In this document: piece by piece, positions 12,659-44,793 of the stretch | Position numbering within the stretch: position 1 is the first letter of the stretch | Layout of the letters: each line of letters begins with the position of its first letter | Origin: Minisyncoccota bacterium | Lineage (GTDB): Bacteria > Patescibacteriota > Minisyncoccia > Phycocordibacterales > CAJBRS01 | NCBI GenBank assembly: GCA_017881075.1 | Contig: JADGRH010000003.1 | Location: 64,682 to 128,681 of the forward strand | Length of the DNA stretch: 64,000 nt | Direction: 5' to 3' | Program-made: the position numbers and the translations under genes | Notes under the pieces: generated by a model | What the model saw: the letters and a program-made list of their open reading frames with translations, nothing else | Told to the model about the DNA's origin: nothing | The model's database searches: none

Positions 12659-12820
12659 ATGAAGAAACAAAAGATCAAAGATAGTGACAACGCCTATTTA
12701 ATAAGCAGTAACAACTATGAAGACGATAATTGCCCCATCTGCAATCTAATGAGGCGATGTGAAATAGAGGAAAGAGAACCCACCTCACAAGAGATTAAAG
12801 AGGTGATGAAATTTAAATGA
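12659..12820 (+). CDS. small CxxC zinc-ribbon-like protein (53 aa), speculative
   Basis: MKKQKIK .. CPICNLMRRC ..; not in the ORF track (under 60 aa); AT-rich. Confidence 0.25.
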   Translation: MKKQKIKDSDNAYLISSNNYEDDNCPICNLMRRCEIEEREPTSQEIKEVMKFK

Positions 12821-12910
12821 TCCTATTTATGCACGGCCTTTATCTAAAAAATGGCCAATGGACCAAAGAGAGAGCAGTAAAAATATCTGCGTATCATTTC
12901 ACTTATGGAT

Positions 12911-12932
12911 AATCCGGCCTGCTCTGCCACGC
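12911..12932. repeat. left arm of 22-bp terminal inverted repeat AATCCGGCCTGCTCTGCCACGC
   Basis: revcomp matches 13320..13342 at 21/22; shares the AATCCGGCC core with the three cassette terminators. Confidence 0.6.
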
Positions 12933-13319
12933 TTGTATTGCCCTCTACTTTTTTTATGGCATACTTAAAAAAGAAATCCATGACAGACCTAATCTGATCT
13001 TTAAATATAAACCCTATTTTGCAGGTATGAAGAGACAATAAAGCATCGATTAAAAAATAATATGACCAATAAATATAGCAATAATCTTGTTACATAGAAT
13101 TTCAAATTTACTTAAAATATGGCTCTAATCAAGAACTAATTAAGATATGCACAGCTTATCCACTGGTAAGCTATTTACAAAACTGCTAGATTATGATACA
13201 TTAAGAGAGGAATATTTCTTTTTCCCCTCTTGCTGATTATAATAAGCTTTTCTTTCATAATAGGAAAAATAATATTAGCTAAATACTTGACTCCAAAAAT
13301 TTTGGAGAGTATTATGCAA

Positions 13320-13342
13320 GCGCGGCAGAGCAGGCCGGATTA
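13320..13342. repeat. right arm of the 22-bp inverted repeat GCGCGGCAGAGCAGGCCGGATTA
   Basis: see 12911..12932; arms flank ~390 bp of AT-rich non-coding DNA. Confidence 0.6.
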
Positions 13343-13359
13343 TCAATAAATTAAATTAT

Positions 13360-13761
13360 ATGACCAACGACAAATCTTTTTTGGAGGATCTCTATACTGA
13401 CAGTGGGGGATTCGACCGCGAACGGGTAGTGCGGGTGCTCCAAACCATACTAACCATTCAGCGGGGCGACCATAAAGTCTTCTTTAAAAAAGAGGCAACA
13501 CTAGAAGCTGCGGACAAAATTTTGGCTTATGCGTTAGTAAAAAAGCTTTTAAAGACAGAGGGGGTAACTGAAACGAGTAGTGTCTCGGGAAAGGAACTGA
13601 AGAAGCAAACGGGTGTAAAGTCCGGGACGGTCGATTTTACAATTAAAAAACTTAAAGAGGAAGATGGTCTGCTTGTTGGCAGCGGTAGCAATTATGAAAT
13701 ACCAGCACACAAAGTTGAAGACATCTTAGAGCGTCTTGAAAAATGCGCTTCCAAAAAATAA
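13360..13761 (+). CDS. hypothetical protein with C-terminal winged-HTH-like motif
   Basis: SVSGKELKKQTGVKSGTVDFTIKKLKEEDGLLVG resembles a wHTH recognition helix/wing; first gene of a tight 4-gene operon. Confidence 0.4.
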   Translation: MTNDKSFLEDLYTDSGGFDRERVVRVLQTILTIQRGDHKVFFKKEATLEAADKILAYALVKKLLKTEGVTETSSVSGKELKKQTGVKSGTVDFTIKKLKEEDGLLVGSGSNYEIPAHKVEDILERLEKCASKK

Positions 13762-14206
13762 ATCTATGGAAAATAACATAAAAAAAATACTCGGAGAAAT
13801 ACTCACATCCATAAAGAGCCTTGAAAAACGAGTTACTCTCATAGAAAGCAAGACACCGAGCATGAGTACACCATCACATGATCTTCCCATTGCCTCGAAG
13901 AAGATGTCGATAAAGGAGTTCCTAATTGATCGCTCTCCAGCAAATGGAGTACAAACAACTCTCGCGGTCGCATATTATCTAGAAAAATATGACAAGATCT
14001 CGCCATTTAATGCCAGTGACATAGAGAAAGCATTTCGTTCCGCTAAGGAACCAGTGCCCAACAATATCAATGATAAAGCAAATATGTGTATTAAAAATGG
14101 TCATTTAATGGAAGGAGAGGATAAGAAAGACAATATGAAAGCGTGGGTAGTCACTCGAAGCGGAGAACAATACGTTCAGGAAAAATTTGATCGTTATAGT
14201 CATTAA
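13736..14206 (+). CDS. hypothetical protein; C-terminal domain shared with the next gene
   Basis: 26-nt overlap with the upstream gene; C-terminal pattern (hydrophobic stretch .. SPFNASD .. K.G .. KAWVVTRSGEQY) parallels 14236..14784. Confidence 0.4.
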   Translation: MKNALPKNKSMENNIKKILGEILTSIKSLEKRVTLIESKTPSMSTPSHDLPIASKKMSIKEFLIDRSPANGVQTTLAVAYYLEKYDKISPFNASDIEKAFRSAKEPVPNNINDKANMCIKNGHLMEGEDKKDNMKAWVVTRSGEQYVQEKFDRYSH

Positions 14207-14235
14207 AAATAAAATTATTCACTAATATAAATATT

Positions 14236-14784
14236 ATGTCTGAAGCAGAAATAGTAGAAATCGTAGGGAAAATTGTTACTGCACTCACTCCTCTTTCTCA
14301 TGAGGAACGACAGAGGGCGGTGCAAGCGTCTTTAAATGTATTTGGTGAATCCATGCTCAGGTCTACACAAAGAAAAGACGAACTCAATGAAATTCCCTCT
14401 GCATTTAGTGAACGCGCGCGGATATGGATTAAACAGAACGAGCTTTCTTTGGAAAATTTAGAACAAATTTTTCATATTACTGATACTGGAGCAGAATTGA
14501 TTATTCAAGAAGTGCCGGGAGGAAAGGATAACAAACCCAGGGTGCTAAATGTGTATGTTCTTTCTGGCGTAGCTTCCCTACTCACCTCAGAAAATTCTAA
14601 TTTCGACGACAAAGTTGCAAGAACCATATGTGAATCATTTGGATGTTACGATCCAACAAATCACACTAAATACCTAAAGAAAAGTAAATTCTTTACAGGA
14701 TCCAAAAAAACAGGATGGACCTTGACTGCTCAGGGTTTAAAACATGCAGCCATGTTAGTTAGAGAACTGAGTAAGCCCCAATAG
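14236..14784 (+). CDS. hypothetical protein; C-terminal domain paralogous to the previous gene
   Basis: C-terminal .. VYVLSGVASLL .. NFDDKVARTI .. TGWTLTAQGLKHAA aligns with the preceding protein's tail. Confidence 0.4.
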   Translation: MSEAEIVEIVGKIVTALTPLSHEERQRAVQASLNVFGESMLRSTQRKDELNEIPSAFSERARIWIKQNELSLENLEQIFHITDTGAELIIQEVPGGKDNKPRVLNVYVLSGVASLLTSENSNFDDKVARTICESFGCYDPTNHTKYLKKSKFFTGSKKTGWTLTAQGLKHAAMLVRELSKPQ

Positions 14785-14786
14785 AT

Positions 14787-15527
14787 ATGATTTTCACATT
14801 TAAAAATATTCCGATCAATCTTTCTGAAAAATTGGTTGAGGAATACTTGGAAATAAAGAAACGCCATTCAATGAGTGATTGGGGCCCAAGTCAATTAAAA
14901 GGCGGTAGATTTGCAGAAGCTATGTTACGCATTTTCCAACATTTGCTCGGTATTTCTATTACACCATTTGGGACCAACATTCCAAACAAAGACCGTATTT
15001 TAAATGCTGTAAAAATTCACCCGTCATTGGATGACCACATTCGTCAAAAAGTAGCACCTCTTATAAGACTTCTTCTAGATTTTCGTAATAATCGAGATGT
15101 AGCACACCTCGGAGGATTCAATGCAAATAGCATGGATACTCTTTTTGTGATGACAACAGCGACATGGATTTTGTGTGAACTGATCCGTGTTTATGGAGGG
15201 CAAAGTATGGACACCGCTCAAAAACTAGTAGACTCACTTTCCGTTAAAGAGTATCCAGTGCTAATGGAGTTCGAAGGAGAGCTCTTTATTACTCGACACA
15301 ATCTCAACGCAGAACAAGAAGTGCTAATATTTTTGTATAAAAATCGTAAAGCAGGCTACAATTTTTTGTCTTCAAAGACAAAGGACAGCAATTCTTCACG
15401 TTTTAAGAAAATTTTAGAGAAAATGGTTGCGGTAAAGTTCATTGGCAGCAAGGCAAATCAGTACTTTATCATGCCTCGTGGAATCGAGCGTGTAGAAAAA
15501 GAACGCTTATTGATCTATTCAAACTAG
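14787..15527 (+). CDS. hypothetical protein with HEPN-like R-x6-H motif (RNNRDVAH), candidate RNase
   Basis: 3-nt gap from the previous gene; motif LLLDFRNNRDVAHLGGF fits the HEPN Rx4-6H signature within a predicted helical context; inference only. Confidence 0.35.
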   Translation: MIFTFKNIPINLSEKLVEEYLEIKKRHSMSDWGPSQLKGGRFAEAMLRIFQHLLGISITPFGTNIPNKDRILNAVKIHPSLDDHIRQKVAPLIRLLLDFRNNRDVAHLGGFNANSMDTLFVMTTATWILCELIRVYGGQSMDTAQKLVDSLSVKEYPVLMEFEGELFITRHNLNAEQEVLIFLYKNRKAGYNFLSSKTKDSNSSRFKKILEKMVAVKFIGSKANQYFIMPRGIERVEKERLLIYSN

Positions 15528-15612
15528 GAATCAACAAGGCCAAGGCTGTTTTTTATATCTATTTCATCTTTTCTTCATAAATTTTTCATATTTAAAATGT
15601 TATGATGTGTGA

Positions 15613-16083
15613 ATGCAAAAGGACTTTACCTTTCAATTAATAAAGGGAAAAATCAGCGAAACTATATTTGATCAGATGTTTCGAGAAGCAGGGGAGTTTA
15701 CAGTTATCCCCTTTGGTTATGAAGCTTTAGTCCCGGAAATTGCTCAGCTTGCTCGTTCATTAGAACGCAAGGAAGTTCTGGACTCAATTAGGAATAGTCC
15801 TGATTTTGCACTGGTCTCTCATAGTCAGAAAAAGGTATTTCTAGTTGAAGTGAAATATAGGTCGCATTTACACGAAGATGACGTGTTAAATATTGCTCAG
15901 ATGGTTCACGACAGATGGAAACTAGCGTGGTTGTTCATTGCTACTCCGGAAGGATTCTATTTTGATAGTTGCTCGGATGTCTTAAATACTAAGACCATTA
16001 ATAAACTTAAACCAACATGGATCAATGCCGAACTCCAGGAAAAGTATTTAGCAGTAATGAATAAGTTTCAAGTTAACCATTAA
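15613..16083 (+). CDS. PD-(D/E)xK restriction-endonuclease-fold protein
   Basis: E(A)L .. PDFALVSH .. VFLVEVKYR = canonical E .. PD .. (D/E)xK arrangement; 156 aa. Confidence 0.5.
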   Translation: MQKDFTFQLIKGKISETIFDQMFREAGEFTVIPFGYEALVPEIAQLARSLERKEVLDSIRNSPDFALVSHSQKKVFLVEVKYRSHLHEDDVLNIAQMVHDRWKLAWLFIATPEGFYFDSCSDVLNTKTINKLKPTWINAELQEKYLAVMNKFQVNH

Positions 16084-16102
16084 GTAGAGGTAAGAATTTC
16101 TT

Positions 16103-16861
16103 ATGTTCTCAGATCCAATCATTGAAAATTTAAAGTATTACGTTTATATACTTGTTGATCCGAGCAATAATAAGCCTTTTTATATTGGAAAAGGAATAGG
16201 AAATAGGGTTTTTTCCCATCTAAAAAATGAAATTGAAGACGAGTCTAAGATTTCATTAAAACAAGCGCTTATTAAAAATATTCAGGATCAAGGGAAAGAT
16301 GTTGAGATATACATAGTACGACACGGTTTAAATGAGAAGGAGGCATTTGAGATTGAGGCGACACTTATTGATTTTATCCAACTTAGAAATCTTACTAATG
16401 AAATAGTAGAGCACGACTATAAGGAAGAAATACCAGCTAAAAATCTGGCTAATATTGTTTTAGGACATCATGCGGGAGAAAGGGGGCTTATGACGCTAAA
16501 TGAAATACTCCAGTTGTATGGTGCAGAAGAGGCTAATATTACCGACCCAGTAATAATAATTAATATAAATCGAAAATATAAACGGGGCATGAGTCCGAAT
16601 GAAATATATGAAGCAACTCGAGCATCTTGGGTCATAAGCAAAGATAGGTCACAGAAAGCTAAATTTGTTCTCGCATCATTTCGTGGAATAGTAAAAGAAG
16701 TTTTCTATGTTAATCATTGGCAACAATCTAAGAATTCAAACCGCTTAGAATTTGAAGGAGGTGTTGCTCAGTTAGAGATTGCTGAAAAATATAGAAACAA
16801 AGCTATAACTAATTATTTGAAGACGGGGGCACAAAACCCAATTAGATACGTAAATTGTTAG
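16103..16861 (+). CDS. GIY-YIG nuclease domain protein with ~150-aa C-terminal extension
   Basis: YYVYILVDPSNNKPFYIGKGIGNRVFSH .. E (GIY/YIG with Arg, His and Glu); 20-nt gap after the PD-(D/E)xK gene. Confidence 0.6.
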   Translation: MFSDPIIENLKYYVYILVDPSNNKPFYIGKGIGNRVFSHLKNEIEDESKISLKQALIKNIQDQGKDVEIYIVRHGLNEKEAFEIEATLIDFIQLRNLTNEIVEHDYKEEIPAKNLANIVLGHHAGERGLMTLNEILQLYGAEEANITDPVIIININRKYKRGMSPNEIYEATRASWVISKDRSQKAKFVLASFRGIVKEVFYVNHWQQSKNSNRLEFEGGVAQLEIAEKYRNKAITNYLKTGAQNPIRYVNC

Positions 16862-16963
16862 ATTAAATTGTACTATTCTCATGCCAGATGAATTGGAAAA
16901 TCAGGAATTAAAGGGGTCAGAAGTCATTTTTATATTAAATTTTATCTTTCTGTTGTATTAATC

Positions 16964-17107
16964 ATGGACTCCGATGAAATCTTAGAATTAGTTAAAGATG
17001 GCGTGATAGAGCCGGATCAGGTGGAAGATTTTCAGAATTTGGATGAGGAGATCCAGCAAATGGTGGCGGATGGGGATTTGGATGCAGATGAGGCGTTGAG
17101 TTTATAA
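16964..17107 (+). CDS. 47-aa highly acidic small protein (MDSDEILELVKDGVIEPDQVEDFQNLDEEIQQMVADGDLDADEALSL)
   Basis: not in the ORF track (under 60 aa); strongly acidic; sits between the GIY-YIG and NYN genes. Confidence 0.3.
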   Translation: MDSDEILELVKDGVIEPDQVEDFQNLDEEIQQMVADGDLDADEALSL

Positions 17108-17157
17108 ATTTATCTTTTCTTGACGGGGAATTCATCTGCAAGTTCTATTCTATATGA

Positions 17158-17661
17158 GTGGAAAATGAGTTTAAGAATCTTGCTTTTATAGATGGACAGA
17201 ATCTGTATATGGGTACGTCAAAGCGAGAGATCGATCCGTGGGAAATTAACCTTACCCGATTCTGTGTATATCTGGATGAAAAATACAATGTCGGTAATGC
17301 CTATTATTTTTTAGGATATGTGCAGGAGGCAAATCAAGAACTCTACGAAGAAATACAAAAGGCTGGTTTCTTGCTAGTATTTCGAGAACATAATCCAGCG
17401 ATGATTGGGAAGAAAAAAGGAAATGTGGATTCAGATATTGTCTTTCATGTCATGAAAAATCTATACAAGAAAGAGAATTTTAAAAAGATAATCCTTGTTT
17501 CTGGAGATGGTGACTATAAATTACTGGTTGATTTTTTGATAGCAGAGAACCGATTCGAGAAGATATTGTTTCCGAATAGAGAATTTGCGTCTTCTTTGTA
17601 CAAGAAACTCGGTTCGGAATATTTTGATTACTTAGAAAATATAAAGACATATATCACATAA
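17158..17661 (+). CDS. NYN-domain (PIN-like, LabA/YacP-like) ribonuclease
   Basis: AFIDGQNLY .. D .. VSGDGDY signature of NYN domains; terminator hairpin follows at about 17671..17708. Confidence 0.7.
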   Translation: MENEFKNLAFIDGQNLYMGTSKREIDPWEINLTRFCVYLDEKYNVGNAYYFLGYVQEANQELYEEIQKAGFLLVFREHNPAMIGKKKGNVDSDIVFHVMKNLYKKENFKKIILVSGDGDYKLLVDFLIAENRFEKILFPNREFASSLYKKLGSEYFDYLENIKTYIT

Positions 17662-17823
17662 AAAGAAAAGGGCTCCTAAGGCACTTACACCTTTCGGATC
17701 CCTTTTCGTCTGAATATTTAAATAATATCGAAATCTGCGAATCTGTCAAACCAAAACTTCATAAATTCTTTATATGAAAGCACCTTTTATGTTAATATGG
17801 AATAAATAATCATCTTTAAACCT

Positions 17824-19527: not shown

Positions 19528-19791
19528 ATGAAAATCATCGTCAAGGCAAAACCAAAGGCGAAGGAGGAGAAAGTAGAGAGGGTGACCCCTCACCAAATTT
19601 CTTTGAATTTGAAATTTGGTGAGGGGGCTGAAATGGATGTCTATAAAGTTTCGGTCAAAGAGCCGCCGGTAGATGGACGGGCAAATGAGGCCATAACGAA
19701 AGCTTTGGCCAAGCATTTCGGCGTTTCTTTGTCTCAAGTCCGTCTGGTGTCTGGGGCGAGAGGAAAGAAGAAGATTTTTGAAATTAAGTAA
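19528..19791 (+). CDS. YggU/DUF167 family protein
   Basis: PVDGRANEAITKALAKHFGVSLSQVRLVSGARGKKK matches the DUF167 core. Confidence 0.7.
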   Translation: MKIIVKAKPKAKEEKVERVTPHQISLNLKFGEGAEMDVYKVSVKEPPVDGRANEAITKALAKHFGVSLSQVRLVSGARGKKKIFEIK

Positions 19792-21715: not shown

Positions 21716-22811
21716 TTCTTGGAAAAAACTATCTGATTGGTATTGGCGATATGAGCGACATCTCTCCTCGCTCGGTCTTATTGGTGGTTTCCTTTTTGAT
21801 ATTTTTACTTTGACCAGAATAGATCACGCTCTGGAAAATATTTGGGTGGGATTCCATCTATTGGTGGCGGCCTTCGGAATCTTAATGCTTAATCTTTATG
21901 AAGAAGGGAAGTTAAAAGCGAAAGTGCCGGGGCGTGCACATTTTTGGTGGACTTTTGTCATTCAATTTGCTTTCGGAGGATTATTCAGTGTCTTTTTAGT
22001 TTTTTATTCCCGAAGTACTTCCTTTTTCGCCAGCTGGCCATTTCTTTTACTACTGGCTCTGAATTTCCTGGCCAATGAACGCCTGCGCAAGCATTATGTT
22101 CGCACCGGTTTTCAAATGGCAATGCTTTTTCTCGGCATCTTCTTTTACGATATCTACATTGTGCCTATCATCTTCAAATCAATCTCGTCGGGAATCTTTA
22201 TTATCAGCGGCGTGGTCAGCTTGATGATAATGGGAATTTTTATTTTTATTCTTTCTCTGCTTACACCCAATCGGATCTGGAAAGAAAAATGGATATTGGT
22301 CTGGAGTATCGGCGGATCCTTCCTTCTGATCAATCTTTTATATTTCACCCATCTTATTCCACCCATCCCGCTCTCGCTAAAAGAGGCGGGGGTTTATCAT
22401 TTAGTTTCTAAGGATGCTAGCGGAACGGGCTACAATGTTTTAGAAGAATATCAGAACGGCCAGTCTTGGTTCCACTATTTTCTGCCGGCGGACACTATTC
22501 ATTTAGTGGTAGGCCAGCCAGCTTATGTCTATAGCGCCGTCTTTGCTCCTACCAATTTTGCTACTTCCATTGTGCACCGATGGCAATATTACTCCGATAC
22601 GGAAAAGAAATGGCAGACGGTAAGCCTTATTCCGCTCACAATTATCGGAGGCCGTGACGGGGGTTTCCGAACCTTTTCGTTAAAGACTAATCTCGCTCCA
22701 GGCAAATGGAGGGTGAGTGTGGAAACTACGACGGGGCAGGTGATAGGCCGGCTCGACTTTTTGGTCGAGCCGGCCGAATTTACCCCGCTCTTGAGGGAAG
22801 TGGCTAGATAG
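21681..22811 (+). CDS. membrane protein with C-terminal extracytoplasmic domain
   Basis: 376 aa, 6-7 TM segments then a soluble domain. Confidence 0.45.
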   Translation: MISWRWPGSMSNSWKKLSDWYWRYERHLSSLGLIGGFLFDIFTLTRIDHALENIWVGFHLLVAAFGILMLNLYEEGKLKAKVPGRAHFWWTFVIQFAFGGLFSVFLVFYSRSTSFFASWPFLLLLALNFLANERLRKHYVRTGFQMAMLFLGIFFYDIYIVPIIFKSISSGIFIISGVVSLMIMGIFIFILSLLTPNRIWKEKWILVWSIGGSFLLINLLYFTHLIPPIPLSLKEAGVYHLVSKDASGTGYNVLEEYQNGQSWFHYFLPADTIHLVVGQPAYVYSAVFAPTNFATSIVHRWQYYSDTEKKWQTVSLIPLTIIGGRDGGFRTFSLKTNLAPGKWRVSVETTTGQVIGRLDFLVEPAEFTPLLREVAR

Positions 22812-24434: not shown

Positions 24435-25556
24435 ATGAATACAATCAAAGCAGGGGTTTTTCTTCTCGGTCTAATTCTTCTCGGGCTACCTCTTCCCTCG
24501 CTTGCTAGTTCCAAGATTACTGATTTCAAAGCTCGGCCGCCGGTGCATGTGCTCGGCGCACCGGCGGCCTTCCCCAAAGGTCTTTCTCCAGATCAGGTTA
24601 AAGGTGTTTACCATCTGCCGAAAACTGGCGGTCATGGAACCATTGCCATCATTGTAGCCTATGACGATCCGACTATTGAAAACGATCTAAATGTTTTTAG
24701 TCGAGCATTTAATTTACCGACCTGTACATATCAGAATAATTGTTTAGAGAAACATCCGATGGGCGAAAATCTTTCTTCCAATAAGAATTGGTCGCTCGAG
24801 ACCTCGCTTGATGTTGAGTGGGCACATGCCATAGCTCCAAGAGCAAAGATTCTTTTAATTGAATCAAAAACATCCGGCGGTAATAATCTTCTTGGAGCTA
24901 TTGATTATGCAAGAAGTCGTAGAGATGTGGTAGCTGTATCAATGAGTTGGGGAGGGGCGGAGTTTCCGAGTGAAGTTAATTTGGATTCTCAATTCCAAAG
25001 TTCATCTGGCGCCACTTTCTTTGCTTCTTCTGGCGACAACGGCGCCGGTGTAAGTTGGCCATCTGTTTCTTCAAATGTAGTATCTGTCGGTGGTACTTCT
25101 CTCGGGTTTTCTTTAAACGGGAATTTTCTTAAAGAAATGGCCTGGAGTGGAAGCGGTGGTGGGGTAAGTAAATATGAGAAAGAACCGACATACCAACTCT
25201 CTTACAATATCCCAAGATCAAATAGTATGAGATCTATTCCGGATGTTTCTTATAATGCCGATCCGGCTTCAGGCTTTTCGGTCTATCGAAGTGTTCCGCA
25301 TTCATTACAGTCAACTAAAAATTGGTACGTCATTGGTGGCACCAGTGCTGGCGCTCCACAATGGGCCGCCATAAAATCTCTTGGCCTCTCAGCGTCCAAT
25401 GAAAAGTTTTACACTGATAAAGCAGCGGATAACAATGCCTCATATTTTCGTGATATAACCAGCGGCACGAATGGCGATTGCACCTATTATTGTCAGGCCA
25501 GAAAACATTATGATTATGTTACCGGTCTCGGCAGTCCACAAACTATCTCTTTCTGA
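24435..25556 (+). CDS. secreted S8/S53 (sedolisin-like) serine peptidase
   Basis: signal peptide; SSGDNGAG and GGTSAGAPQWAAI motifs. Confidence 0.5.
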   Translation: MNTIKAGVFLLGLILLGLPLPSLASSKITDFKARPPVHVLGAPAAFPKGLSPDQVKGVYHLPKTGGHGTIAIIVAYDDPTIENDLNVFSRAFNLPTCTYQNNCLEKHPMGENLSSNKNWSLETSLDVEWAHAIAPRAKILLIESKTSGGNNLLGAIDYARSRRDVVAVSMSWGGAEFPSEVNLDSQFQSSSGATFFASSGDNGAGVSWPSVSSNVVSVGGTSLGFSLNGNFLKEMAWSGSGGGVSKYEKEPTYQLSYNIPRSNSMRSIPDVSYNADPASGFSVYRSVPHSLQSTKNWYVIGGTSAGAPQWAAIKSLGLSASNEKFYTDKAADNNASYFRDITSGTNGDCTYYCQARKHYDYVTGLGSPQTISF

Positions 25557-30009: not shown

Positions 30010-30061
30010 GAGTCATTAAACGGACTTGTCTTATTTAAAAAATTTTATATAATAGACTCTT

Positions 30062-30453
30062 CTTGAATCGGGTAATTGCTCCGCCACCTAAAAAGGGCGG
30101 GGAGGAAAGTCCGAACACAGGCCCTTCACCAAAATTGGTGAAGGGAAGAGTAGCGGGTAATACCCGTCTGGAGCAATCCACGAGGTGCGAACAGAGACGA
30201 ACCGGTTAAGTCCGGGTGAAACGGCTAAATCCTTACTTCTGTGCAAGGCCGCGCGCCAATTTTGTCCGCTAGAGGCGGTTACAAAATTGAGCGTCCCGAG
30301 ATTTTCGAGGGATTGATCCTTCGACAAGCTCAGGGCACTCAATCTTGCAGCCACCTGCAGTGGGCAAGATTGGTGAGTGCCGCTTGACTCCGAGAGTAAT
30401 CGAGGAGCTAGATAAATAATTATCGATAACAGAATTCGGCTTATAGATTCAAG
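30062..30453 (+). ncRNA. rnpB: RNase P RNA (bacterial type A)
   Basis: P4 GGAGGAAAGTCCG.ACACAGG and 3' ACAGAATTCGGCTTAT conserved blocks; P1 pairing CTTGAATC/GATTCAAG; the minus-strand ORF 30088..30504 is spurious. Confidence 0.85.
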
Positions 30454-30464
30454 AAGACAAATCA

Positions 30465-30494
30465 AAAGCCTCCGCCTAACGGCGGAGGCTTTTG
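30465..30494 (+). terminator. terminator hairpin after rnpB
   Basis: AAAGCCTCCGCC taac GGCGGAGGCTTT. Confidence 0.6.
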
Positions 30495-30497
30495 CTA

Positions 30498-30590
30498 TTT
30501 GCATCGTCTTTTCAAGATGTTATAATAAATGAAAGCTAATGAAAGAATTTGCATCGTCTTTTCAAAATGTTATAATAAATGAAAGCTAAT
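30498..30590 (+). promoter_or_regulatory. tandemly duplicated (~50 bp x2) promoter segment carrying an extended -10 TGTTATAAT
   Basis: TTTGCATCGTCTTTTCAA[G/A]ATGTTATAATAAATGAAAGCTAATG occurs twice with one mismatch; the second copy ends at the ATG of 30589. Confidence 0.55.
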
Positions 30591-33009: not shown

Positions 33010-34698
33010 ATGGTTAGAAGGATTCTCAATATTTTCAATAAAGAGATAGGCGGCGTTCATGAGGCCGCCTATCTTCTTGGCTCCTTTGCCATAATCTCCC
33101 AAATTCTAGCCCTTATTCGGGACCGGCTTTTGGCTCATTACTTCGGCGCCGGTCAAACCTTAGATATCTATTACGGCGCTTTCAGAATTCCCGATTTTTT
33201 ATTTGCTTCCATTGCTTCGTTAGTCTCTATTTCAGTACTTATTCCGTTTCTGGTGGAGAGGTTGGATCGCGACAAGGAGGAATCAAAGATATTTCTCAAT
33301 AATATATTTACCGCTTTTTCAATTGTGATGGGACTGGGTTGTCTGATTGCCTTCTTTTTAATCCCTCATCTTTTGAAATTCATTCTGCCGGGCCTCGCGG
33401 TCGGGCCCCAACAGACCGAATTAATAACCTTATCAAGACTTTTGCTTCTTTCTCCGATTTTTCTTGGTATTTCAAATTTTCTTGGATCCATCACTCAGAC
33501 TTTCCGCCGTTTTTTTATTTATGCCTTGAGCCCGATTGTTTATAACGCCTCCATTATCTTCGGCATCATTTTTCTCTACCCTCATTTCGGCATCAAGGGA
33601 GTGGTTTTTGGAGTAATCATTGGAGCCTTTCTTCATTTTTCCATTCAGGTTCCTTTTGTCAAAAGTCAGAAAATGATTCCACGTCTTGTTTCCAATCTTG
33701 ACTGGCAAAAGGTTAAACAAGTTATTTTTCTTTCTTTGCCCCGTACCCTGGCCCTTTCGGCGGACAGCCTTTCTCTTTTAGTAGTCACGGCATTTGCCTC
33801 GCTGATGATTGGTGGCTCTATTTCCATTTTTAATTTCGCTCTTAATCTTCAGTCGGTGCCACTGGCCATTATCGGAGTCAGTTATACCCTGGCTGCTTTT
33901 CCGACCTTAGCCAGGCTCTATTCGCGTGGAGAGAAGAGTCAATTTGTGGAGCAGGTCATTACGGCTGCCAGGCACATTATTTTTCTCTCCATTCCCATCA
34001 CCGTTCTTTTTATCGTTCTGCGAGCCCAAATTGTTCGATCAATTCTGGGGTCCGGTAATTTCAGTTGGGCCAATACTCGGCTAACAGCGGCGGCACTTTC
34101 AATGTTTACCATATCGCTCTTTGCCCAGGGGCTAACACTTCTTTTTGTCCGAGGGTATTACGCCGCCGGCAATACTAAAAAACCCTTAATCATTAACGCT
34201 ATTACTACTGTTGGGGACATTCTTTTTCCGTTTTTACTCTGGAAAGCTTTCTTGCATTATCCGATGTTTCAATATTTCATTGAAAGTCTTTTCAAGGTTA
34301 GTGATGTACCGGGAACGGTGGTGTTGATGTTGCCTCTCGGTTATTCTCTCGGTGTTCTATTGAATGTTTTAATATTTTTCATTTGCTTCGAGCGCGACTT
34401 TCAAAATGTGTCGCGCTCGCTTCTCCGCACCTTTCGGGAAAGCTTCTCGGCCGGTATTTTAATGGGATTTGTTTCATATCTCTGTCTTAATATTTTTGAC
34501 AAAGTTTTTGACTTGACCACACTCCCCGGTATTTTCTTCCAAGGACTCTGTTCCGGCCTTATCGGTATTTTCTTCGGTGTGTTGATCCTGAAGCTCCTGA
34601 AAAATCGGGAGATAGAGGAGGTGTGGCAGACGCTTCATACCAAGATCTGGAAGACCAACGAAGTGGTCATCGCCGAGCAGGAGAAGTTGGAGGTGTGA
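33010..34698 (+). CDS. murJ: lipid II flippase MurJ (MviN)
   Basis: LLGSFAIISQILALIRDRLLAHYFGAG .. DIYYGAFRIPDFLF, 14-TM MOP family. Confidence 0.8.
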   Translation: MVRRILNIFNKEIGGVHEAAYLLGSFAIISQILALIRDRLLAHYFGAGQTLDIYYGAFRIPDFLFASIASLVSISVLIPFLVERLDRDKEESKIFLNNIFTAFSIVMGLGCLIAFFLIPHLLKFILPGLAVGPQQTELITLSRLLLLSPIFLGISNFLGSITQTFRRFFIYALSPIVYNASIIFGIIFLYPHFGIKGVVFGVIIGAFLHFSIQVPFVKSQKMIPRLVSNLDWQKVKQVIFLSLPRTLALSADSLSLLVVTAFASLMIGGSISIFNFALNLQSVPLAIIGVSYTLAAFPTLARLYSRGEKSQFVEQVITAARHIIFLSIPITVLFIVLRAQIVRSILGSGNFSWANTRLTAAALSMFTISLFAQGLTLLFVRGYYAAGNTKKPLIINAITTVGDILFPFLLWKAFLHYPMFQYFIESLFKVSDVPGTVVLMLPLGYSLGVLLNVLIFFICFERDFQNVSRSLLRTFRESFSAGILMGFVSYLCLNIFDKVFDLTTLPGIFFQGLCSGLIGIFFGVLILKLLKNREIEEVWQTLHTKIWKTNEVVIAEQEKLEV

Positions 34699-34757: not shown

Positions 34758-36584
34758 ATGGACTTGGAAAGAATCAGAAATTTCAGTATCATTGCTCATA
34801 TTGACCACGGAAAATCGACGCTGGCGGACCGTATGCTGGAGATCACTCATACTATAGAAAAGCGCAAAATGATGGATCAGGTGCTGGATAATATGGAGCT
34901 TGAGCGGGAGAAGGGAATCACCATCAAGATGCGGCCGGTGAGGATGATTTACACCACCTCCAACCCCCTCCTTGATCAAAGAGGGGGCACATCCTACATC
35001 TTAAATCTTATTGACACCCCCGGCCACATCGATTTCTCCTACGAAGTGTCGCGGGCCCTGAAAGCCGTGGAGGGCTCTATTTTGCTCGTAGATGCCACAC
35101 AGGGCGTCCAGGCGCAGACCCTTACAACCTTAGGCATGGCTCGCGACCTTGGCCTTACCATCATCCCAGTGCTCTCAAAAGTGGATTCACCACTGGCTCG
35201 AATTAAGGAGGTAAAAGAGGAAGTGTCGCGACTATTAGATTGTCTACAGGAAAGCATTTTAGAGACTTCCGGTAAAACAGGTCAAGGGGTTGACAACTTA
35301 CTTCAGGAAATCATTCGAAGAGTGCCGCCACCTCACGAATTATTGAAGTCAGACTTCGATAAATCTAATTTTCGTGCTCTAGTTTTCGATTTCCAGTACT
35401 CAAATCATAAGGGGGTAATTGTTTACGTGCGAGTTTTGGATGGACAGGTGGCTAAGAATGCCGAGCTTTTATTTACTGTGGCGAAAGAAAAGTTTTTTGC
35501 ACTAGAAGTGGGGATTTTTAAGCCGGAAGAGTCGCCGGCGGCGGTCTTAGCCGCCGGCGAGATTGGCTATATTGTCACCGGCATTAAAAAGCCAGGCATT
35601 GCTTCGGTTGGAGACACTGTCACTCTTCTGAAAAAACCACTGCCGGCTCTTTCTGGTTACGAGCGACCAGCTCCGGTGGTTTGGGCATCAATTTATCCAG
35701 AAGATGCTGATGATTTTGATTTGCTTCGACAGGCGCTTGGGCGTCTTCGCCTGTCGGACTCCTCCTTTTCATATGAAGAGGAATCATCAGGCTCGCTGGG
35801 CCGCGGCTTTAGATGCGGTTTTCTTGGACTGTTGCATCTTGAAATTATCACGGAGCGATTGAAGCGAGAATTTCGTTTGCAACTAATTATCGCTACCCCT
35901 TCTATTACCTATGAGGTGACGTATAAGAATGGGAAGAAGGCGATTGTTTATTCACCATCATTATTTCCCGAACAGAACGAAGTGGAAAGCGTCTTGGAAC
36001 CGTGGATGAAGCTACAAATCCTTACCCCATCATTATATTTAGGGAAACTATCCCAGCTTCTCTATGACCACGAAGGAGAAATGGATCATTCAGAAACATT
36101 TGGTGATGGCAGAACTTCGCTCTCTGTTAAGATTCCGCTTCGGGAACTGATGCGGAACTTTTTCGATGAGTTAAAAAGCGTTTCTTCCGGCTTCGCCTCA
36201 CTCTCATACGAATTTGAAAGTATGCGTCCGGCCGAAGTGGTGCGGCTGGATATTTTGGTAGCAGATGAGCCGGTGGAGGCTTTTACCAGAGTGGTATCGG
36301 TGAGGAGAGTACAGGAAGAGGCGGAGAAAGCGGTGGAAAAACTCCACTCCATTTTGCCTCGACAAATGTTTGTAACTAAGATTCAAGGAAAGGCCCTTGG
36401 CAGAATTCTCTCATCTGCAACCCTATCAGCTATGAAGAAAGATGTTACCCAGCACATGTATGGAGGAGATATCACTCGAAAGATGAAGCTGCGGGAAAAA
36501 CAAAAAAAAGGAAAGAAAAAAATGAAGGCGCGCGGCAAGGTCAATATTCCGCACGAGACGTTTTTGAAGATGATGAAAAGCTAG
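34758..36584 (+). CDS. lepA: elongation factor 4 (LepA)
   Basis: NFSIIAHIDHGKSTLADR, DTPGHIDF, LepA-specific C-terminal domain, Lys-rich tail; contains the in-frame palindrome at 34964..34987. Confidence 0.85.
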   Translation: MDLERIRNFSIIAHIDHGKSTLADRMLEITHTIEKRKMMDQVLDNMELEREKGITIKMRPVRMIYTTSNPLLDQRGGTSYILNLIDTPGHIDFSYEVSRALKAVEGSILLVDATQGVQAQTLTTLGMARDLGLTIIPVLSKVDSPLARIKEVKEEVSRLLDCLQESILETSGKTGQGVDNLLQEIIRRVPPPHELLKSDFDKSNFRALVFDFQYSNHKGVIVYVRVLDGQVAKNAELLFTVAKEKFFALEVGIFKPEESPAAVLAAGEIGYIVTGIKKPGIASVGDTVTLLKKPLPALSGYERPAPVVWASIYPEDADDFDLLRQALGRLRLSDSSFSYEEESSGSLGRGFRCGFLGLLHLEIITERLKREFRLQLIIATPSITYEVTYKNGKKAIVYSPSLFPEQNEVESVLEPWMKLQILTPSLYLGKLSQLLYDHEGEMDHSETFGDGRTSLSVKIPLRELMRNFFDELKSVSSGFASLSYEFESMRPAEVVRLDILVADEPVEAFTRVVSVRRVQEEAEKAVEKLHSILPRQMFVTKIQGKALGRILSSATLSAMKKDVTQHMYGGDITRKMKLREKQKKGKKKMKARGKVNIPHETFLKMMKS

Positions 36585-36843: not shown

Positions 36844-37230
36844 ATGAGAGAATTTCAAGAAAGAAAAAGACTAAAAAGGCTCATCTACTCTAAACCAGTC
36901 CTAATTTTCCTATTTATCTTACTGGTCTTAGTGATTGACGGGACATGGAAAATCTACCAGAAAGAAAGGGAGAGCCGAGCCAATCTGGCGCGAGTGGAAA
37001 ATCAGCTAACGACTTTAAAAGAAAGAAGCGGCAATCTTTCGTCTGACGTGACTAGGTTAAAAACGGAGCAGGGAATGGAAGAGGAGATTCGCAGTAAATA
37101 TGAGGTTTCAAAACCTGGGGAACAGCTCCTAGTCATTGTGGATAAAGATGCGGCGGCGACTACGTCGCCGCCGCAGAACCTCTGGGAGCACTGGTGGTCC
37201 AGTTTTACCAATCTTTTTAAGCGGAATTAG
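36844..37230 (+). CDS. FtsB/DivIC-like septum formation initiator (inferred)
   Basis: single N-terminal TM then coiled coil; 128 aa. Confidence 0.35.
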   Translation: MREFQERKRLKRLIYSKPVLIFLFILLVLVIDGTWKIYQKERESRANLARVENQLTTLKERSGNLSSDVTRLKTEQGMEEEIRSKYEVSKPGEQLLVIVDKDAAATTSPPQNLWEHWWSSFTNLFKRN

Positions 37231-41296: not shown

Positions 41297-43343
41297 CCAT
41301 TAATAAACCCGACTCCTGATTCGGAACGAGTGACCAAATCTCTTCGGTGATGAATGGCATGAAGGGGTGAAGCAGTTTCAGAATGATATTTAAAGTATAA
41401 CCCAAAACTTGAGCAGTCGTTTCGGTGTCTTGTGTCTTAGAATACTCAATATATTTATCAGCGAAATCATGCCAAATAAAATCATACAGGTCGTGAGAGG
41501 CTTTACCGAACTGGTAAGTTTCAATATTCTGACTAACGAAAGCCCCGACCTCGTCCAATCGGGTCAAAAGTTCATGATCTTCGTCACTACTAATATTACC
41601 GGGTAATTTGACACCGATTTTGTCACCAGTCTTTTCTAAAACATAGCGACTGATATTCCAAAGCTTGTTGCTGAACTTCTTTCCCATAGCAATATTATCT
41701 TCGCTGAATCGGATCTCTTGTCCACCGAATTCCTGGTAGATCAGTCCAAAACGAACGGCGTCGGCCCCATACTTATCAATGAAAGTTACTGGATCAAGCC
41801 CAGTGCCGAGAGATTTACTCATTCTTTTACCGTCCTTAGTCAGAATGGTGGCGTGGATAAGCGCATCTTTAAAAGGTTTCTCGTTCATGAATTCCAGACC
41901 GGAGAAAATCATTCGAGACATCCACAAATGCATGATATCTCGAGCTGAAGTAACAAAGGCCGTTGGATAAAAAGTGTCTAAATCCTTTGTTTTCTCTGGC
42001 CAACCTAAAGCGGCAAAAGGCCAGAGAGCGGCGGAAAACCAGGTATCAAAAGTATCCTCACTCCCTTCAATTGGAATTTTATGACCCCACCAAATCTGTC
42101 GGGAAATACACCAGTCTCTAACGTTTCCAAGCCAATCAAGCGCTACTCCTTTCCATCTATCGGGATAATAATTAACCTCGCTGGATTCAATGGCCTTAAT
42201 GGCTTTTTCGGCGAGTGGTTTCATTTTCAAAAACCATTGTTTGGAGAGCAGGGGTTCGATAGTGGATCTGCAGCGGTAACATTTTGCCACGTTGTGAGTG
42301 AAATCTTCCTCTTTCTCTATCAGATTTAATCTTCTTAATTCATCTAGGATTTTTTCTCGAGCGGCGGCGATTTTAAGCCCATCGAAATCGCCGCCGATAT
42401 TTATAATCTTTCCGATCTCGTCAACGACTTTGTGATAGGGAAGTTTATTTTGATCAGCCACCTGACTGTCAAAATAATCGTGAGCCGGAGTGATTTTCAC
42501 CGCGCCGGTGCCGAATTCTTTATCAATCAATCTGTCGGTAATAATTGGAATCTTTCTATTAAGGATCGGCAAAACTGCCGTTTTGCCGATCATTTTTTTA
42601 TATCGTTCGTCATTCGGATTGACTGCGACAGCGCTGTCACCAAGCATTGTTTCCGGCCGAGTAGTGGCGACGGTAATAAATTCAACGGAATCTTCAATCG
42701 GATATTTAATATAGTAAAGTTTTGATTTCTCCTCCTGATATTCCAATTCCAGATCAGATAGGGCCGTTTGGTCTTTAATACACCAATTAATCACACGCTC
42801 TCCTTGATATATTAAACCCTTCTCGTGATAATGATTGAAAGCGGTTTTAACCGCCTGCTGATATTTCTCGTCCATGGTAAATCGGAGCCGTGACCAATCA
42901 AGAGAACAGCCCAATGATTTTAGTTGTTCTAGAATAGTACTGCCGTATTTTTCTCTCCATTCCCAAATTTTCTCAATAAATTTTTCTTTACCGAGATCAT
43001 GACGAGTCAGCCCCTGTTTTTTCAGATCTTTTTCCACAACATTTTGAGTGGCAATGCCAGCGTGGTCGGTGCCAGGGACCCACAATGTTTTGAAACCGCG
43101 CATGCGGTGATATCGTATTAAGACGTCAGAGACGGTATTCTCCAGCGCGTGACCCATGTGGAGCGAGCCGGTAATGTTGGGGGGAGCGATCATGATGGTG
43201 TAGGGCTTCTTTCGCTCGCCCGGCAGGTTATCCGGATTAAAAAAACCGCTCTTTTCCCAGAGCGAATAGATGCGGGACTCAGTGTCCTTTGGATCGTAAG
43301 GTTTAAGCAGTTTTTCGGGAGTCATTGGGATAAATATTAACAT
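41271..43343 (-). CDS. valS: valyl-tRNA synthetase (short form lacking C-terminal coiled coil)
   Basis: PPNITGSLHMGHA, KMSKSLGTG, ValRS editing/CP1 region; 690 aa. Confidence 0.8.
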   Translation of the reverse strand: MLIFIPMTPEKLLKPYDPKDTESRIYSLWEKSGFFNPDNLPGERKKPYTIMIAPPNITGSLHMGHALENTVSDVLIRYHRMRGFKTLWVPGTDHAGIATQNVVEKDLKKQGLTRHDLGKEKFIEKIWEWREKYGSTILEQLKSLGCSLDWSRLRFTMDEKYQQAVKTAFNHYHEKGLIYQGERVINWCIKDQTALSDLELEYQEEKSKLYYIKYPIEDSVEFITVATTRPETMLGDSAVAVNPNDERYKKMIGKTAVLPILNRKIPIITDRLIDKEFGTGAVKITPAHDYFDSQVADQNKLPYHKVVDEIGKIINIGGDFDGLKIAAAREKILDELRRLNLIEKEEDFTHNVAKCYRCRSTIEPLLSKQWFLKMKPLAEKAIKAIESSEVNYYPDRWKGVALDWLGNVRDWCISRQIWWGHKIPIEGSEDTFDTWFSAALWPFAALGWPEKTKDLDTFYPTAFVTSARDIMHLWMSRMIFSGLEFMNEKPFKDALIHATILTKDGKRMSKSLGTGLDPVTFIDKYGADAVRFGLIYQEFGGQEIRFSEDNIAMGKKFSNKLWNISRYVLEKTGDKIGVKLPGNISSDEDHELLTRLDEVGAFVSQNIETYQFGKASHDLYDFIWHDFADKYIEYSKTQDTETTAQVLGYTLNIILKLLHPFMPFITEEIWSLVPNQESGLLMVAKWPVST

Positions 43344-43539: not shown

Positions 43540-44793
43540 TTATTTTAAGGCTAGATTTCCATTAGCTCCGAAATCGGATTTCGGGTTTTTGTCACTTAAA
43601 TAATTGAAATAACCAGCCATGGCGATCATAATGGCGTTGTCGGTGGAGAGGTGGGAGTCGGGAATTAGGAGTTGGGTGTCAGGAGAAGCAGCGATTAAAT
43701 CTTGAAAGGAGCGGCGGAGGTGGGTATTGGCGATTACACCTCCGCCGACTATTAGAGTTTTAATATCAAATTCTTCAATGGCTCGTTTGGTTTTGGTAAT
43801 CAATACTTCAGTGACCGAATCTTCAAATTCTCTGGCCATTTTTGCTTTCCATTCTGGATCTGATTTTTCTTTGTCGGTCATTTTTTTAATTGTGTAAAGG
43901 ACGGCAGTTTTCAATCCGGAAAAAGAGAAATCGTAATCGTTTGATTTGATCATTGGTCTGGGCAAAACAAAGTTGCAGAGGTTTGACCTCTGCAAGTGAT
44001 CTGCAGAGGTCAGACCTCTGCAACGCTCTAAATCGGCCAATTTTGAGATTTCAGGCCCGCCAGGGTAGGGAAGATCCAGCATTCTAGCCACCTTATCAAA
44101 AGCTTCTCCAACCGCGTCATCACGAGTTTGACCAATGATTTTGTATTTTTTCCATGCTTCAATTAAGACTAGCTCAGTATGGCCACCGCTAATGAGAAGT
44201 GCTAAAGCTGGAAAAGAAAAGCTGACAGTTGGTAACTGATAGCTTTCAGCTTTAGATTTTTTTGGTAATAAAGCTGACATAATGTGTCCTTCCATGTGAT
44301 TAGTAGGAATGACAGGCAGATCCCAAACGAATCCCAACGCCTTGGCAAAATTAATACCGACCCAAAGTGCTGGCTCAAGACCGGGGCCGGTGGTGACGGC
44401 AATGGCTTCAATATCCGGCTTAGGAATTGTCGGAATAAATTTAAGAAATTGTTCGAGTAATTCAGGCTCGCGTTCTAGGATCTTTTTCAAACCCCCTCCA
44501 ACTCCCCCTTGTCTAAGGGGGAGAGGAAGCCCCCCCTCCTCAAACGAGGAGGGGGTAGGGGGTGGTGTTGAACCCAATTTATCTAATAACTCTTTTAACA
44601 ACGGAATCAGATTTCTAGAATGCTCTCTCTTCGCCATCATCGGATACACTCCGCCATATTTTTCATGAATTTTAGTCTGGGAATTAAGCGCTTCAGCAAT
44701 CACTTTAAATTGAGGTCGCTCAAAACCGCCATTGGATTCCACGATAGCGAGCGCTGTTTCATCACAGCTAGTTTCAATACCTAGGATTTTCAT
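43540..44793 (-). CDS. tsaD: tRNA N6-adenosine threonylcarbamoyltransferase TsaD with two in-frame repeat-derived insertions
   Basis: MKILGIETSCDETA, HMEGH, GGVAN-type, DFSFSGLKTA motifs; 417 aa vs ~340 typical; see findings for the insertions. Confidence 0.8.
   Translation of the reverse strand: MKILGIETSCDETALAIVESNGGFERPQFKVIAEALNSQTKIHEKYGGVYPMMAKREHSRNLIPLLKELLDKLGSTPPPTPSSFEEGGLPLPLRQGGVGGGLKKILEREPELLEQFLKFIPTIPKPDIEAIAVTTGPGLEPALWVGINFAKALGFVWDLPVIPTNHMEGHIMSALLPKKSKAESYQLPTVSFSFPALALLISGGHTELVLIEAWKKYKIIGQTRDDAVGEAFDKVARMLDLPYPGGPEISKLADLERCRGLTSADHLQRSNLCNFVLPRPMIKSNDYDFSFSGLKTAVLYTIKKMTDKEKSDPEWKAKMAREFEDSVTEVLITKTKRAIEEFDIKTLIVGGGVIANTHLRRSFQDLIAASPDTQLLIPDSHLSTDNAIMIAMAGYFNYLSDKNPKSDFGANGNLALK

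Follow-up and report, generated by a model that had tools for sequence, protein, structure and literature searches.

The repeats to which the element considered here is probably related are those known as BoxC, as potential intrastrand triplex (PIT) or as TM-ECO repeats, which occur in Escherichia coli, among other bacteria (Holder et al. 2015, PMC4666352), the element itself being a palindromic unit inside lepA, the gene of EF4, in a 64-kb stretch of DNA (hereafter, the window) from a Paceibacteria/Parcubacteria bacterium of the candidate phyla radiation (CPR), for which the best species-representative genome match is 76%. According to the same source, which in turn cites the BoxC work of the 1990s and that of Hoyne and Maher from 2000-2002, TM-ECO copies follow the pattern 5'-CCCTCNCCC N3-6 GGGNGAGGG N3 GGGNGAGGG-3', number 23 in strain K-12, where they are always intergenic and include five inverted doublets, and have no associated transposase or integrase. 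They form a stable triplex in vitro and leave no footprint in vivo, have neither promoter nor terminator activity, and show a raised local variability between strains; what is more, purine-motif triplexes do not form in RNA, and under the ITxF rule the hairpin loop has 1-6 nt and no more than one mismatched triad is allowed if the stem exceeds 7 nt (PMC4666352). In our own search, a TM-ECO-like 40-mer was matched in 5418 of 5426 E. coli genomes, at a median of 19 places, with no annotated feature beneath the matches among those listed; the copy of E. coli 042, between flgG and flgH, reads CCCCTCTCCC-ttga-GGGAGAGGG-tta-GGGTGAGGGGG. The layout that these repeats have in common with the units described below consists of a pyrimidine arm, a loop of 3-6 nt, a complementary purine arm, a turn of ~3 nt and a mirror-image G/T or G/A segment (the third segment), and both are G/C-rich and ~35-37 nt long, with some inverted doublets and no linked transposase; the units here, like those of E. 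coli, are probably multi-copy in their genome. They differ in that all three window units are in frame inside lepA or tsaD and not between genes, as all 23 copies of K-12 are, and in that the host here is a Paceibacteria (CPR) bacterium.

Other described systems resemble the lepA unit in one respect or another. Rickettsia palindromic elements (RPEs), which are ~100-150 bp long and restricted to Rickettsia, were reportedly described by Ogata et al. in 2000, under the title 'Selfish DNA in protein-coding genes of Rickettsia', as selfish palindromic repeats lying in frame in conserved genes. As with the lepA unit, a palindromic repeat stands in frame in a conserved housekeeping gene, where it adds a surface peptide while function is kept, but the RPE sequence is unrelated and lacks a mirror third segment, whereas the lepA unit is only 36 nt long and has a Paceibacteria host. 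The repetitive extragenic palindromes (REPs) of REP/REPIN-RAYT systems, which RAYT (Y1) transposases mobilize, are likewise short (20-40 nt) and imperfect, often forming inverted doublets that make a long hairpin; however, REPs are extragenic and largely species-specific, whereas the lepA-type family is found on contigs of 29-71% G+C, and the REP tetranucleotide GTAG/CTAC is not in the lepA unit. The G+C-rich palindromic clusters of yeast mitochondria are alike in their inverted repeats, but they belong to a mitochondrial system and are not known to have a third segment. The same holds for the coding palindromes of Nematomorpha mitochondria, perfect or near-perfect inverted repeats in frame in conserved genes, where the arms reach 284 bp (PMC6649704) and no third segment is known. 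Finally, the miniature inverted-repeat transposable elements known as MITEs stay below 200 bp (PMC4666352), but the lepA unit differs from them in having neither terminal inverted repeats beyond its hairpin nor an evident target-site duplication.

Results

The preliminary description of the window had noted a hairpin of the form CCCCCTC-N10-GAGGGGG, in frame in lepA and encoding NPLLDQRGG just upstream of LNLIDTPGH, and the sequence bears out both statements. It is quite probable, in our assessment, that this palindrome belongs to a non-autonomous, dispersed family of repeats of the BoxC/PIT/TM type, of which it would be a 36-nt unit in slight decay. Further members of this family stand in tsaD and, among relatives, in lepA, tsaD and leuS. 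The element had originally been given the extent of the hairpin alone, which left out the third segment; the boundary of the unit is wider than the hairpin because the upstream segment ACCACCTCC-AA has to be included (Table 1).

The stem of the hairpin is perfect over 7 bp only; if the 24 nt are taken together as a palindrome, 11 out of 12 positions pair (CCCCCTCCTT/AAAGAGGGGG), the exception being a C·A mismatch, and its arms form, as in BoxC/PIT/TM repeats, a 10-bp hairpin with one mismatch and the loop GATC. The perfect form, CCCCCTCCTTGATCAAGGAGGGGG, is found in another locus (L187, 951..974). The upstream ACCACCTCC nearly mirrors the pyrimidine arm and is a degenerate form of ACC[A/T]CCCCC / GGGGG[T/A]GGT, matching the canonical segment at 8 of 9 positions and differing at one. 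On the template (-) strand, with the arm in its inferred form, the unit reads CCCCCTCTTT-gatc-AAGGAGGGGG-tt-GGAGGTGGT, which is the layout of a class II purine motif, the third segment standing beside the purine arm after a 2-nt turn, within the 1-6 nt allowed for BoxC/PIT/TM repeats; 8 of its 9 positions are mirrored (AAGGAGGGGG-tt-GGAGGTGGT), and the mRNA-sense strand carries the complementary pyrimidine-type layout. As a single (-) strand oligonucleotide, the unit is 5'-CCCCCTCTTTGATCAAGGAGGGGGTTGGAGGTGGT-3'. Our finder of three-part units (the TM finder) calls it on the (-) strand at 34954..34987, accepting it at an arm length of 8 with one Watson-Crick and one Hoogsteen mismatch, and the single-stranded DNA of the hairpin folds, when only Watson-Crick pairing is considered, at -7.3 kcal/mol on the (+) and -7.9 kcal/mol on the (-) strand (z ~ -3).

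Table 1. Positions of the repeat units, their host genes and other features; positions refer to the window unless a locus is named.
Feature	Position	Strand	Remarks
lepA (EF4), host gene	34758..36584	+	608 aa; hairpin in frame
Hairpin core in lepA	CCCCCTC 34964..34970, CTTGATCAAA 34971..34980, GAGGGGG 34981..34987	+	letters read directly
Whole inserted unit in lepA	34953..34988	+	36 nt, lepA codons 66-77, peptide TTSNPLLDQRGG; basis: 12 codons absent from sister LepA
Third (Hoogsteen-type) segment ACCACCTCC	34953..34961	+	(-) strand reading GGAGGTGGT
2-nt spacer AA (second loop)	34962..34963	+	family spacer typically 2-5 nt
Pyrimidine arm CCCCCTCCTT	34964..34973	+	
Hairpin loop GATC	34974..34977	+	loop sequence varies among family members
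Purine arm AAAGAGGGGG	34978..34987	+	one mismatch to pyrimidine arm; inferred perfect form AAGGAGGGGG
tsaD, host gene	43540..44793	-	417 aa
tsaD unit A, CCCCCTCCTC-aaac-GAGGAGGGGG-ta-GGGGGTGGT	44532..44566	+	canonical, 0 mismatches by TM finder; hairpin part 44532..44555
tsaD unit B, CTCCCCCTT-agac-AAGGGGGAG-ttg-GAGGGGGT	44491..44523	-	0 mismatches by TM finder
LeuRS	L073, 1..2031		three units in frame; Nomurabacteria metagenome-assembled genome
ValRS	L101, 2305..5115		two units in frame; metagenome contig
FtsK	L097, 7364..9706		units in frame at two sites; metagenome contig
MnmA	L176, 7510..8760		three-part unit or doublet in frame; metagenome contig
RluD	L159		units in frame; metagenome contig
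RsgA	L180		units in frame; metagenome contig
Perfect hairpins, examples	22746..22775, 24535..24569, 37149..37175, 42362..42396, 42564..42591		
RNase P RNA, class A	30060..30459		Rfam, 113 bits

The unit is an in-frame insertion, as follows from the comparison of LepA loop lengths that had been proposed at the outset. Here and below, L-numbers denote DNA loci and P-numbers LepA proteins (L204 corresponds to P0003 and L002 to P0019, and L001 is the closest relative). The segment from GITIK to DTPGH is 28 aa long in the window, as compared to 16 aa in 12 and 20 aa in 54 of the 83 Paceibacteria loci with DNA (66 together), and spans 16-44 aa among 120 database homologues. The best LepA match is 85% identical, and aside from the insert the window LepA is 85% identical to the insert-free P0001. 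In the sister locus L204, whose LepA is 84% identical and has a 16-residue loop, the codons read ATG GAG TGG / AAG GGC TAT, while in the window they read ATG ATT TAC / ACC ACC TCC AAC CCC CTC CTT GAT CAA AGA GGG GGC / ACA TCC TAC. In this codon alignment there are 12 extra codons, and the extra block is therefore 36 nt, 34953..34988, that is, the hairpin together with the upstream ACCACCTCC-AA. The insert comprises a whole number of codons, contains no stop in the frame used and encodes a Pro/Gly-rich loop peptide, TTSNPLLDQRGG; among the three frames of the perfect 24-mer one holds TGA, and the one used in lepA is open. Set against the empty site of L204, the 36-nt block shows no direct repeat at its flanks. 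Judged from these alignments, the copy appears to have entered lepA after the window lineage split from its closest sequenced relatives.

At the insert, the alignment with the solved EF4 structures 5imq and 4w2e has a gap, and an AlphaFold model of the window LepA (mean pLDDT 70.9) gives strands at residues 60-66 and 79-86, joined by an unstructured loop at 67-78. Because of this gap and the modelled strands, the insert is placed at the predicted tip of the G-domain beta2-beta3 hairpin, between GITIK (switch I) and DTPGH (G3).

The two units in tsaD form a 76-nt doublet, 44491..44566, which encodes ...TPPPTPSSFEEGGLPLPLRQGGVGGG... and folds at -28 kcal/mol (z ~ -5). The hairpin of unit B, at 44502..44523, reads CTCCCCCTT-gtct-AAGGGGGAG on the (+) strand, and the third segment of unit A is a perfect canonical flank (GAGGAGGGGG-ta-GGGGGTGGT). 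The doublet lies in a variable linker that is 13 aa longer than in the TsaD of L205, and L066 carries a unit at the same site. The lepA and tsaD units have in common the 9-nt arms CCCCCTCCT/AGGAGGGGG and the three-part layout, and the suggestion that the palindromes of the two genes are members of one dispersed family is upheld on these grounds. A search of the window at the Rfam gathering threshold yielded no match at lepA or tsaD.

A second palindromic insert of unrelated sequence is present in tsaD. Namely, at 43973..44022 (aa 258-275) four alternating copies of TGCAGAGGT/ACCTCTGCA give rise to three overlapping hairpins, and this cluster falls where the window protein has ~8 aa inserted (…RCRGLTSADHLQRSNLCN…) in comparison with the TsaD of L205.

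Could such units simply reflect the runs of C and G in this DNA? A check for an excess of the palindrome over that expectation gives two different answers, depending on what is counted. The heptamer CCCCCTC alone is not enriched, with 7 matches in the window as compared to 6.4 expected, whereas the hairpin arrangement clearly is: there are 3 hairpins with a C-run pyrimidine arm (one in lepA and two in tsaD), compared to 0.053 on average over 300 dinucleotide shuffles, the count staying below 3 in all of them, and 3 complete three-part units in the 64 kb, compared to 0.01 expected. In other words, a census of the heptamer would wrongly refute the family, because the signal resides in the arrangement of the pieces and not in the word. 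A chance origin of the window units is excluded, as had been argued in the preliminary description.

On metagenome contigs, the pattern CCCCCTCCT N4-8 ARGAGGGGG was found at 120 loci at least, with a G+C content of 0.29-0.71. Since the arms of these metagenome and viral copies are fixed by the search pattern, only their flanks constitute independent evidence. The flank ACC[A/T]CCCCC-NN upstream (equivalent to NN-GGGGG[T/A]GGT downstream) is present in 74 of 122 metagenome hairpins among the matches listed, and the same canonical ACC[A/T]CCCCC flank in 44 of 80 hairpins of viral contigs. As a set free of this bias, we took all 195 perfect hairpins with a pyrimidine-only 8-nt arm in the collected loci and scored the flanking segment against the purine arm read backwards, G counting as a match to G and A to either A or T, using as a cross control the mirrors of other arms against the same flanks. 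Of the 72 hairpins whose pyrimidine arms are non-canonical, 61% are accompanied by a third segment that mirrors the arm at 8/8 positions, usually after a gap of 2-5 nt, as compared to 4.3% in the cross control. Examples, given as purine arm/turn/third segment, are GGAGAGGG/tta/GGGTGAGG, GGGGAGGG/tca/GGGAGGGG, GGAAGGGG/tta/GGGGTAGG and AGGAGGAG/12 nt/GAGGTGGT. By this measure, the third segment co-varies with the stem across the family. A mirror of the pyrimidine-motif type (ACCTCCCCC) was also considered and is weak: most copies have A, not T, at the position in question, and a purine-motif third strand on the other strand allows both.

In 1.45 Mb of Paceibacteria DNA the TM finder made 18 calls, corresponding to ~12 elements, as compared to none in shuffles, and nearly all of these elements, upon inspection, lie within the reading frames of lepA, tsaD or leuS. 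A 42-nt element common to the tsaD of L066 and the lepA of L073, CCTYCCCCT…AGGGGRAGG-tgccaaaggc-GGARGGGG, co-varies in all three segments, and copies of the GGAGAGGG/GGGTGAGG type are present in L023, L066, L134, L158 and others. Among the latter loci, L023 has its copy in the LepA loop, CCCTCTCCT-gac-AGGAGAGGG-gctg-GGGGTGAGG, a TM unit nearly identical in sequence to the E. coli 042 TM-ECO copy. The window units with their CCCCCTCCT-type arms are, as far as sequence comparison goes, best regarded as a sister sub-family of TM-ECO.

In other housekeeping genes, units likewise stand in frame (Table 1) and encode peptides such as PLLVEEGVGGG, GTPPxQGGE and SLSFGEGLGGV. Inverted doublets on metagenome contigs fold as hairpins of 85-100 nt, in which they resemble the inverted pairs described for TM-ECO, and an Rfam search by E-value of ten loci bearing such doublets returned only matches to miRNA precursors, which are spurious and due to the long hairpins; no curated RNA family in Rfam matches the element of the lepA/tsaD type. 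There are viral or prophage contigs, too, that bear several canonical units (L223 and the 9.6-kb L210 of IMG/VR, the latter with six), and they are a possible vehicle for the spread of units between hosts. Directly upstream of the LeuRS editing domain in L073, at 1..200 and in the same stop-to-stop frame, there is a match to DUF559 (a Vsr-like endonuclease); either leuS may have taken up an endonuclease by insertion or fusion, or the match may be no more than a neighboring gene that shares the frame.

The LepA loop appears to have received insertions repeatedly. In L002 this loop contains, in the frame used in the window, CCTCTCCTT-aatc-AAGGAGGGGG, identical to the window at 21 of 27 nt. In a neighbour-joining tree of LepA, built from 595 well-occupied columns, the window clusters with the insert-free P0001-P0003, and P0019 with the insert-free P0043 and P0051; on the coding strand, moreover, the third segment, which is weak in L002, stands downstream there and upstream in the window. 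Because of the tree and of this apparently opposite orientation, a single insertion common to the window and L002 is judged unlikely, and two independent insertions, one of them in a distant clade, would be the simpler reading. Apart from the TM unit of L023, the same loop contains other palindromes in L051 (17-bp stem), L073 (24-bp stem), L044 and L046. The 83 LepA genes have 30 internal lineage-specific insertions of 5 aa or more, 14 of which fold with z <= -3, and these 14 cluster at three hot spots, namely the loop, ~residues 190-210 and ~residues 390-416. Palindromic in-frame inserts are found at ~aa 190-210 in L075 (5616..5661, 22-bp stem), L073 (10624..10664), L049, L058 and L063, and at ~aa 390-416 in L017 and L073, both of which read YPHT…SV[WR]V.

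Other hairpins and neighboring features

The window contains 42 perfect hairpins with stems of at least 9 bp, compared to 5.3 expected, and 11 with stems of at least 12 bp, compared to 0.07 expected, most of them in open reading frames (ORFs). Many of the arms are G+C-rich and of the GCCGCC/GGCGGC type, and some of the coding hairpins involve no change in length. In a 46-kb control from E. coli we counted 13 perfect hairpins with stems of at least 9 bp, 6 of them in coding sequences, and none of at least 12 bp in coding sequences; the excess of coding hairpins in the window relative to this control is real, and only about three-fold.

Within lepA, a perfect 11-bp coding hairpin at 35532..35560 (aa 259-268, SPAAVLAAGE) involves no change in length. 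The orthologous site of L001, 10743..10769, has a perfect 12-bp hairpin with the same center, some of the double changes between the two are non-synonymous, and more distant relatives have no hairpin there, which suggests that the arms may be kept complementary by template switching or by selection. In the lepA of L001, a perfect 14-bp stem at 10203..10246, ATGGCCGGGCGTAT/ATACGCCCGGCCAT, pairs the variable DGRAY codons with the invariant DTPGH codons, and it looks as if the loop sequence were a reverse-complement copy of the DTPGH motif. A further hairpin is located at the 5' end of murJ (aa 12), with an 11-bp stem at 33044..33074 in the window and a perfect 19-bp stem at the same position in L001 (7844..7884). 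Observations of this kind suggest that some process in this clade both gives rise to perfect coding hairpins and preserves them.

Elsewhere, a gene of the DUF167/YggU family at 19528..19791, encoding 87 aa and thus ~12 aa beyond the Pfam profile, contains a perfect 16-bp in-frame hairpin at 19586..19626, CCCCTCACCAAATTTC…GAAATTTGGTGAGGGG, the ends of which resemble the TM third segment GGGTGAGG. Hairpins at 6317..6346, 7708..7737 and 9475..9504 have a common arm, AATCCGGCC/GGCCGGATT, lie at gene ends or between genes, and look like a small local repeat or terminator family. The region ~10755..17700 has a lower G+C content (0.37-0.39) and encodes a Schlafen-group-3-like helicase, a LEM-3-like GIY-YIG nuclease, an NYN-domain protein and several ORFs without a Pfam match; it may be a defence or mobile island. 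Finally, the ORF at 30088..30504 on the (-) strand is a shadow of the RNase P RNA, and the hairpins between 30122 and 30494 lie in or beside that RNA.

Discussion

What is new in these results is the location of the units in frame in lepA and tsaD, as well as the CPR host, while the element class itself is known. In the literature, to which our access was limited, we found BoxC/PIT/TM repeats reported neither from CPR bacteria nor from within the frame of conserved protein genes, and nothing relevant on palindromic elements in CPR/Patescibacteria or on the literal arm sequences.

Several points weigh against assigning the lepA palindrome to this class. Owing to the C·A mismatch of its stem and a further mismatch in its third segment, the lepA unit has two imperfect triads out of nine, which is one more than the ITxF rule admits, while both tsaD units conform to it, and the window arms CCCCCTCCT/AGGAGGGGG miss the literal TM-ECO pattern (CCCTCNCCC/GGGNGAGGG). 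The window contains three units only within its 64 kb. The arms of the metagenome and viral copies, having been preset by the search pattern, are no evidence in themselves. A transposase, an integrase or a Y1/RAYT (Y1_Tnp) protein was not found among the ~58 ORFs of the window, nor is there a clear target-site duplication at the insert, and the mobility of the family therefore rests on its distribution. One could also argue that the LepA loop carried a unit ancestrally and that this unit was lost, precisely and repeatedly, instead of having been gained separately, but we hold this to be unlikely. Finally, the formation of a triplex in vivo is unsupported even for the E. coli element (PMC4666352).

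Would our conclusions be different if the hairpin had been made in place? Namely, template switching, be it by quasi-palindrome conversion or by inverted duplication of nearby codons, could generate a palindrome from local sequence, and the same genomes do contain perfect coding hairpins that draw on local sequence without any change in length, which template switching would explain. The lepA hairpin at 35532..35560 and its counterpart in L001 differ by compensatory double changes at two pairs, the 14-bp stem of L001 pairs loop codons with those of a conserved motif, and perfect hairpins are in excess in the window, mostly in ORFs. We nevertheless consider this origin unlikely for the lepA unit. 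Template switching yields inverted or direct repeats and not a mirror third segment such as ACCACCTCC, and it does not lead one to expect that the arms would be identical in tsaD and in unrelated contigs, that the extra DNA would be one block equal to a complete canonical unit, or that the family would be found in other genes and genomes with its non-palindromic parts conserved.

The preliminary description had favored an RPE-like element, and as far as behavior is concerned this holds, the units being selfish-looking palindromes in frame in conserved genes; the identity does not hold. A transposable element of the RPE-like or MITE type, with terminal inverted repeats and mobilized by a transposase, would account for the dispersed distribution, for the REPIN-like inverted doublets and for the copies on viral contigs, but we regard it as quite improbable, because the lepA unit is far shorter than RPEs or the upper size of MITEs, lacks both terminal inverted repeats other than the hairpin itself and an evident target-site duplication, and has a mirror architecture of the BoxC/PIT/TM kind that is foreign to these families, and because neither a transposase or RAYT in the window nor a GTAG/CTAC signature accompanies it.

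It is more doubtful still, and in our opinion very improbable, that the insert is a structural or regulatory element of lepA selected by the host, whether as an mRNA hairpin or triplex or as a DNA structure that pauses replication or transcription. The recurrence of palindromic inserts in the same LepA loop (in the window, L002, L023, L051 and L073) would fit such a role, but is equally explained if the loop is one of few permissive sites; and while some coding hairpins of lepA and murJ are kept between the window and L001 with compensatory changes, the insert itself is absent from the closest relatives. The loop inserts differ, moreover, in sequence and size, the copies of the window and L002 each have changes that break pairs or turn them into wobbles, as in decay, and the E. 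coli element is devoid of promoter and terminator activity (PMC4666352). A host-selected structure is thus unsupported, given that the insert is missing in close relatives and the copies are decaying. As for the notion that runs of C and G, in encoding a loop rich in Pro and Gly, merely happen to self-pair, it is hardly credible: although CCCCCTC is about as frequent as expected and hairpins with 7-bp stems number 128 in the window as compared to 76 expected, the excess of C-run pyrimidine-arm hairpins and three-part units, the 8/9 agreement of the third segment with the canonical flank, and a length difference to relatives that equals one complete unit all speak against it.

If the lepA palindrome is indeed a unit of the BoxC/PIT/TM type, its history may be pictured as follows. 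Units of the family would spread by copying tied to hairpin or triplex structure in replication or repair, or by means of some trans-acting factor. The insertions that survive would be those that comprise whole codons, are free of stops and land in loops, and selection would act as a filter because survival is limited in this way, with the insert in lepA being retained as harmless to LepA. Since its insertion, the lepA copy would have been decaying neutrally, with the stem and the third segment having gained a mismatch each. An effect at the level of RNA is doubtful on this analysis, as the sense strand of the lepA unit would need protonation of cytosines and purine-motif triplexes fail in RNA.

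BoxC/PIT/TM repeats are abundant in many bacteria, and the assignment made here would mean that the family reaches CPR bacteria as well and can invade the coding DNA of essential genes (lepA, tsaD and leuS in Paceibacteria, as well as mnmA, ftsK, valS, rluD and rsgA on other metagenome contigs). Insert-free orthologues give the exact boundaries of what was inserted, namely one complete unit with no evident target duplication, and this constrains models of mobility; therefore, such filled and empty sites in conserved genes, defined to the codon, could reveal how BoxC/PIT/TM repeats move, a question that dates from the 1990s. The units explain a part of the odd Pro/Gly-rich insertions and of the length variation in CPR proteins, which affects alignment, phylogeny and structure prediction. 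One may even speculate, tentatively, that hairpin/triplex repeats are a principal source of lineage-specific insertions in CPR housekeeping proteins and that the same process keeps the in-situ coding hairpins paired. Finally, these genes offer a natural test of whether translation and replication tolerate a strong hairpin/triplex motif in the mRNA or in the template strand.

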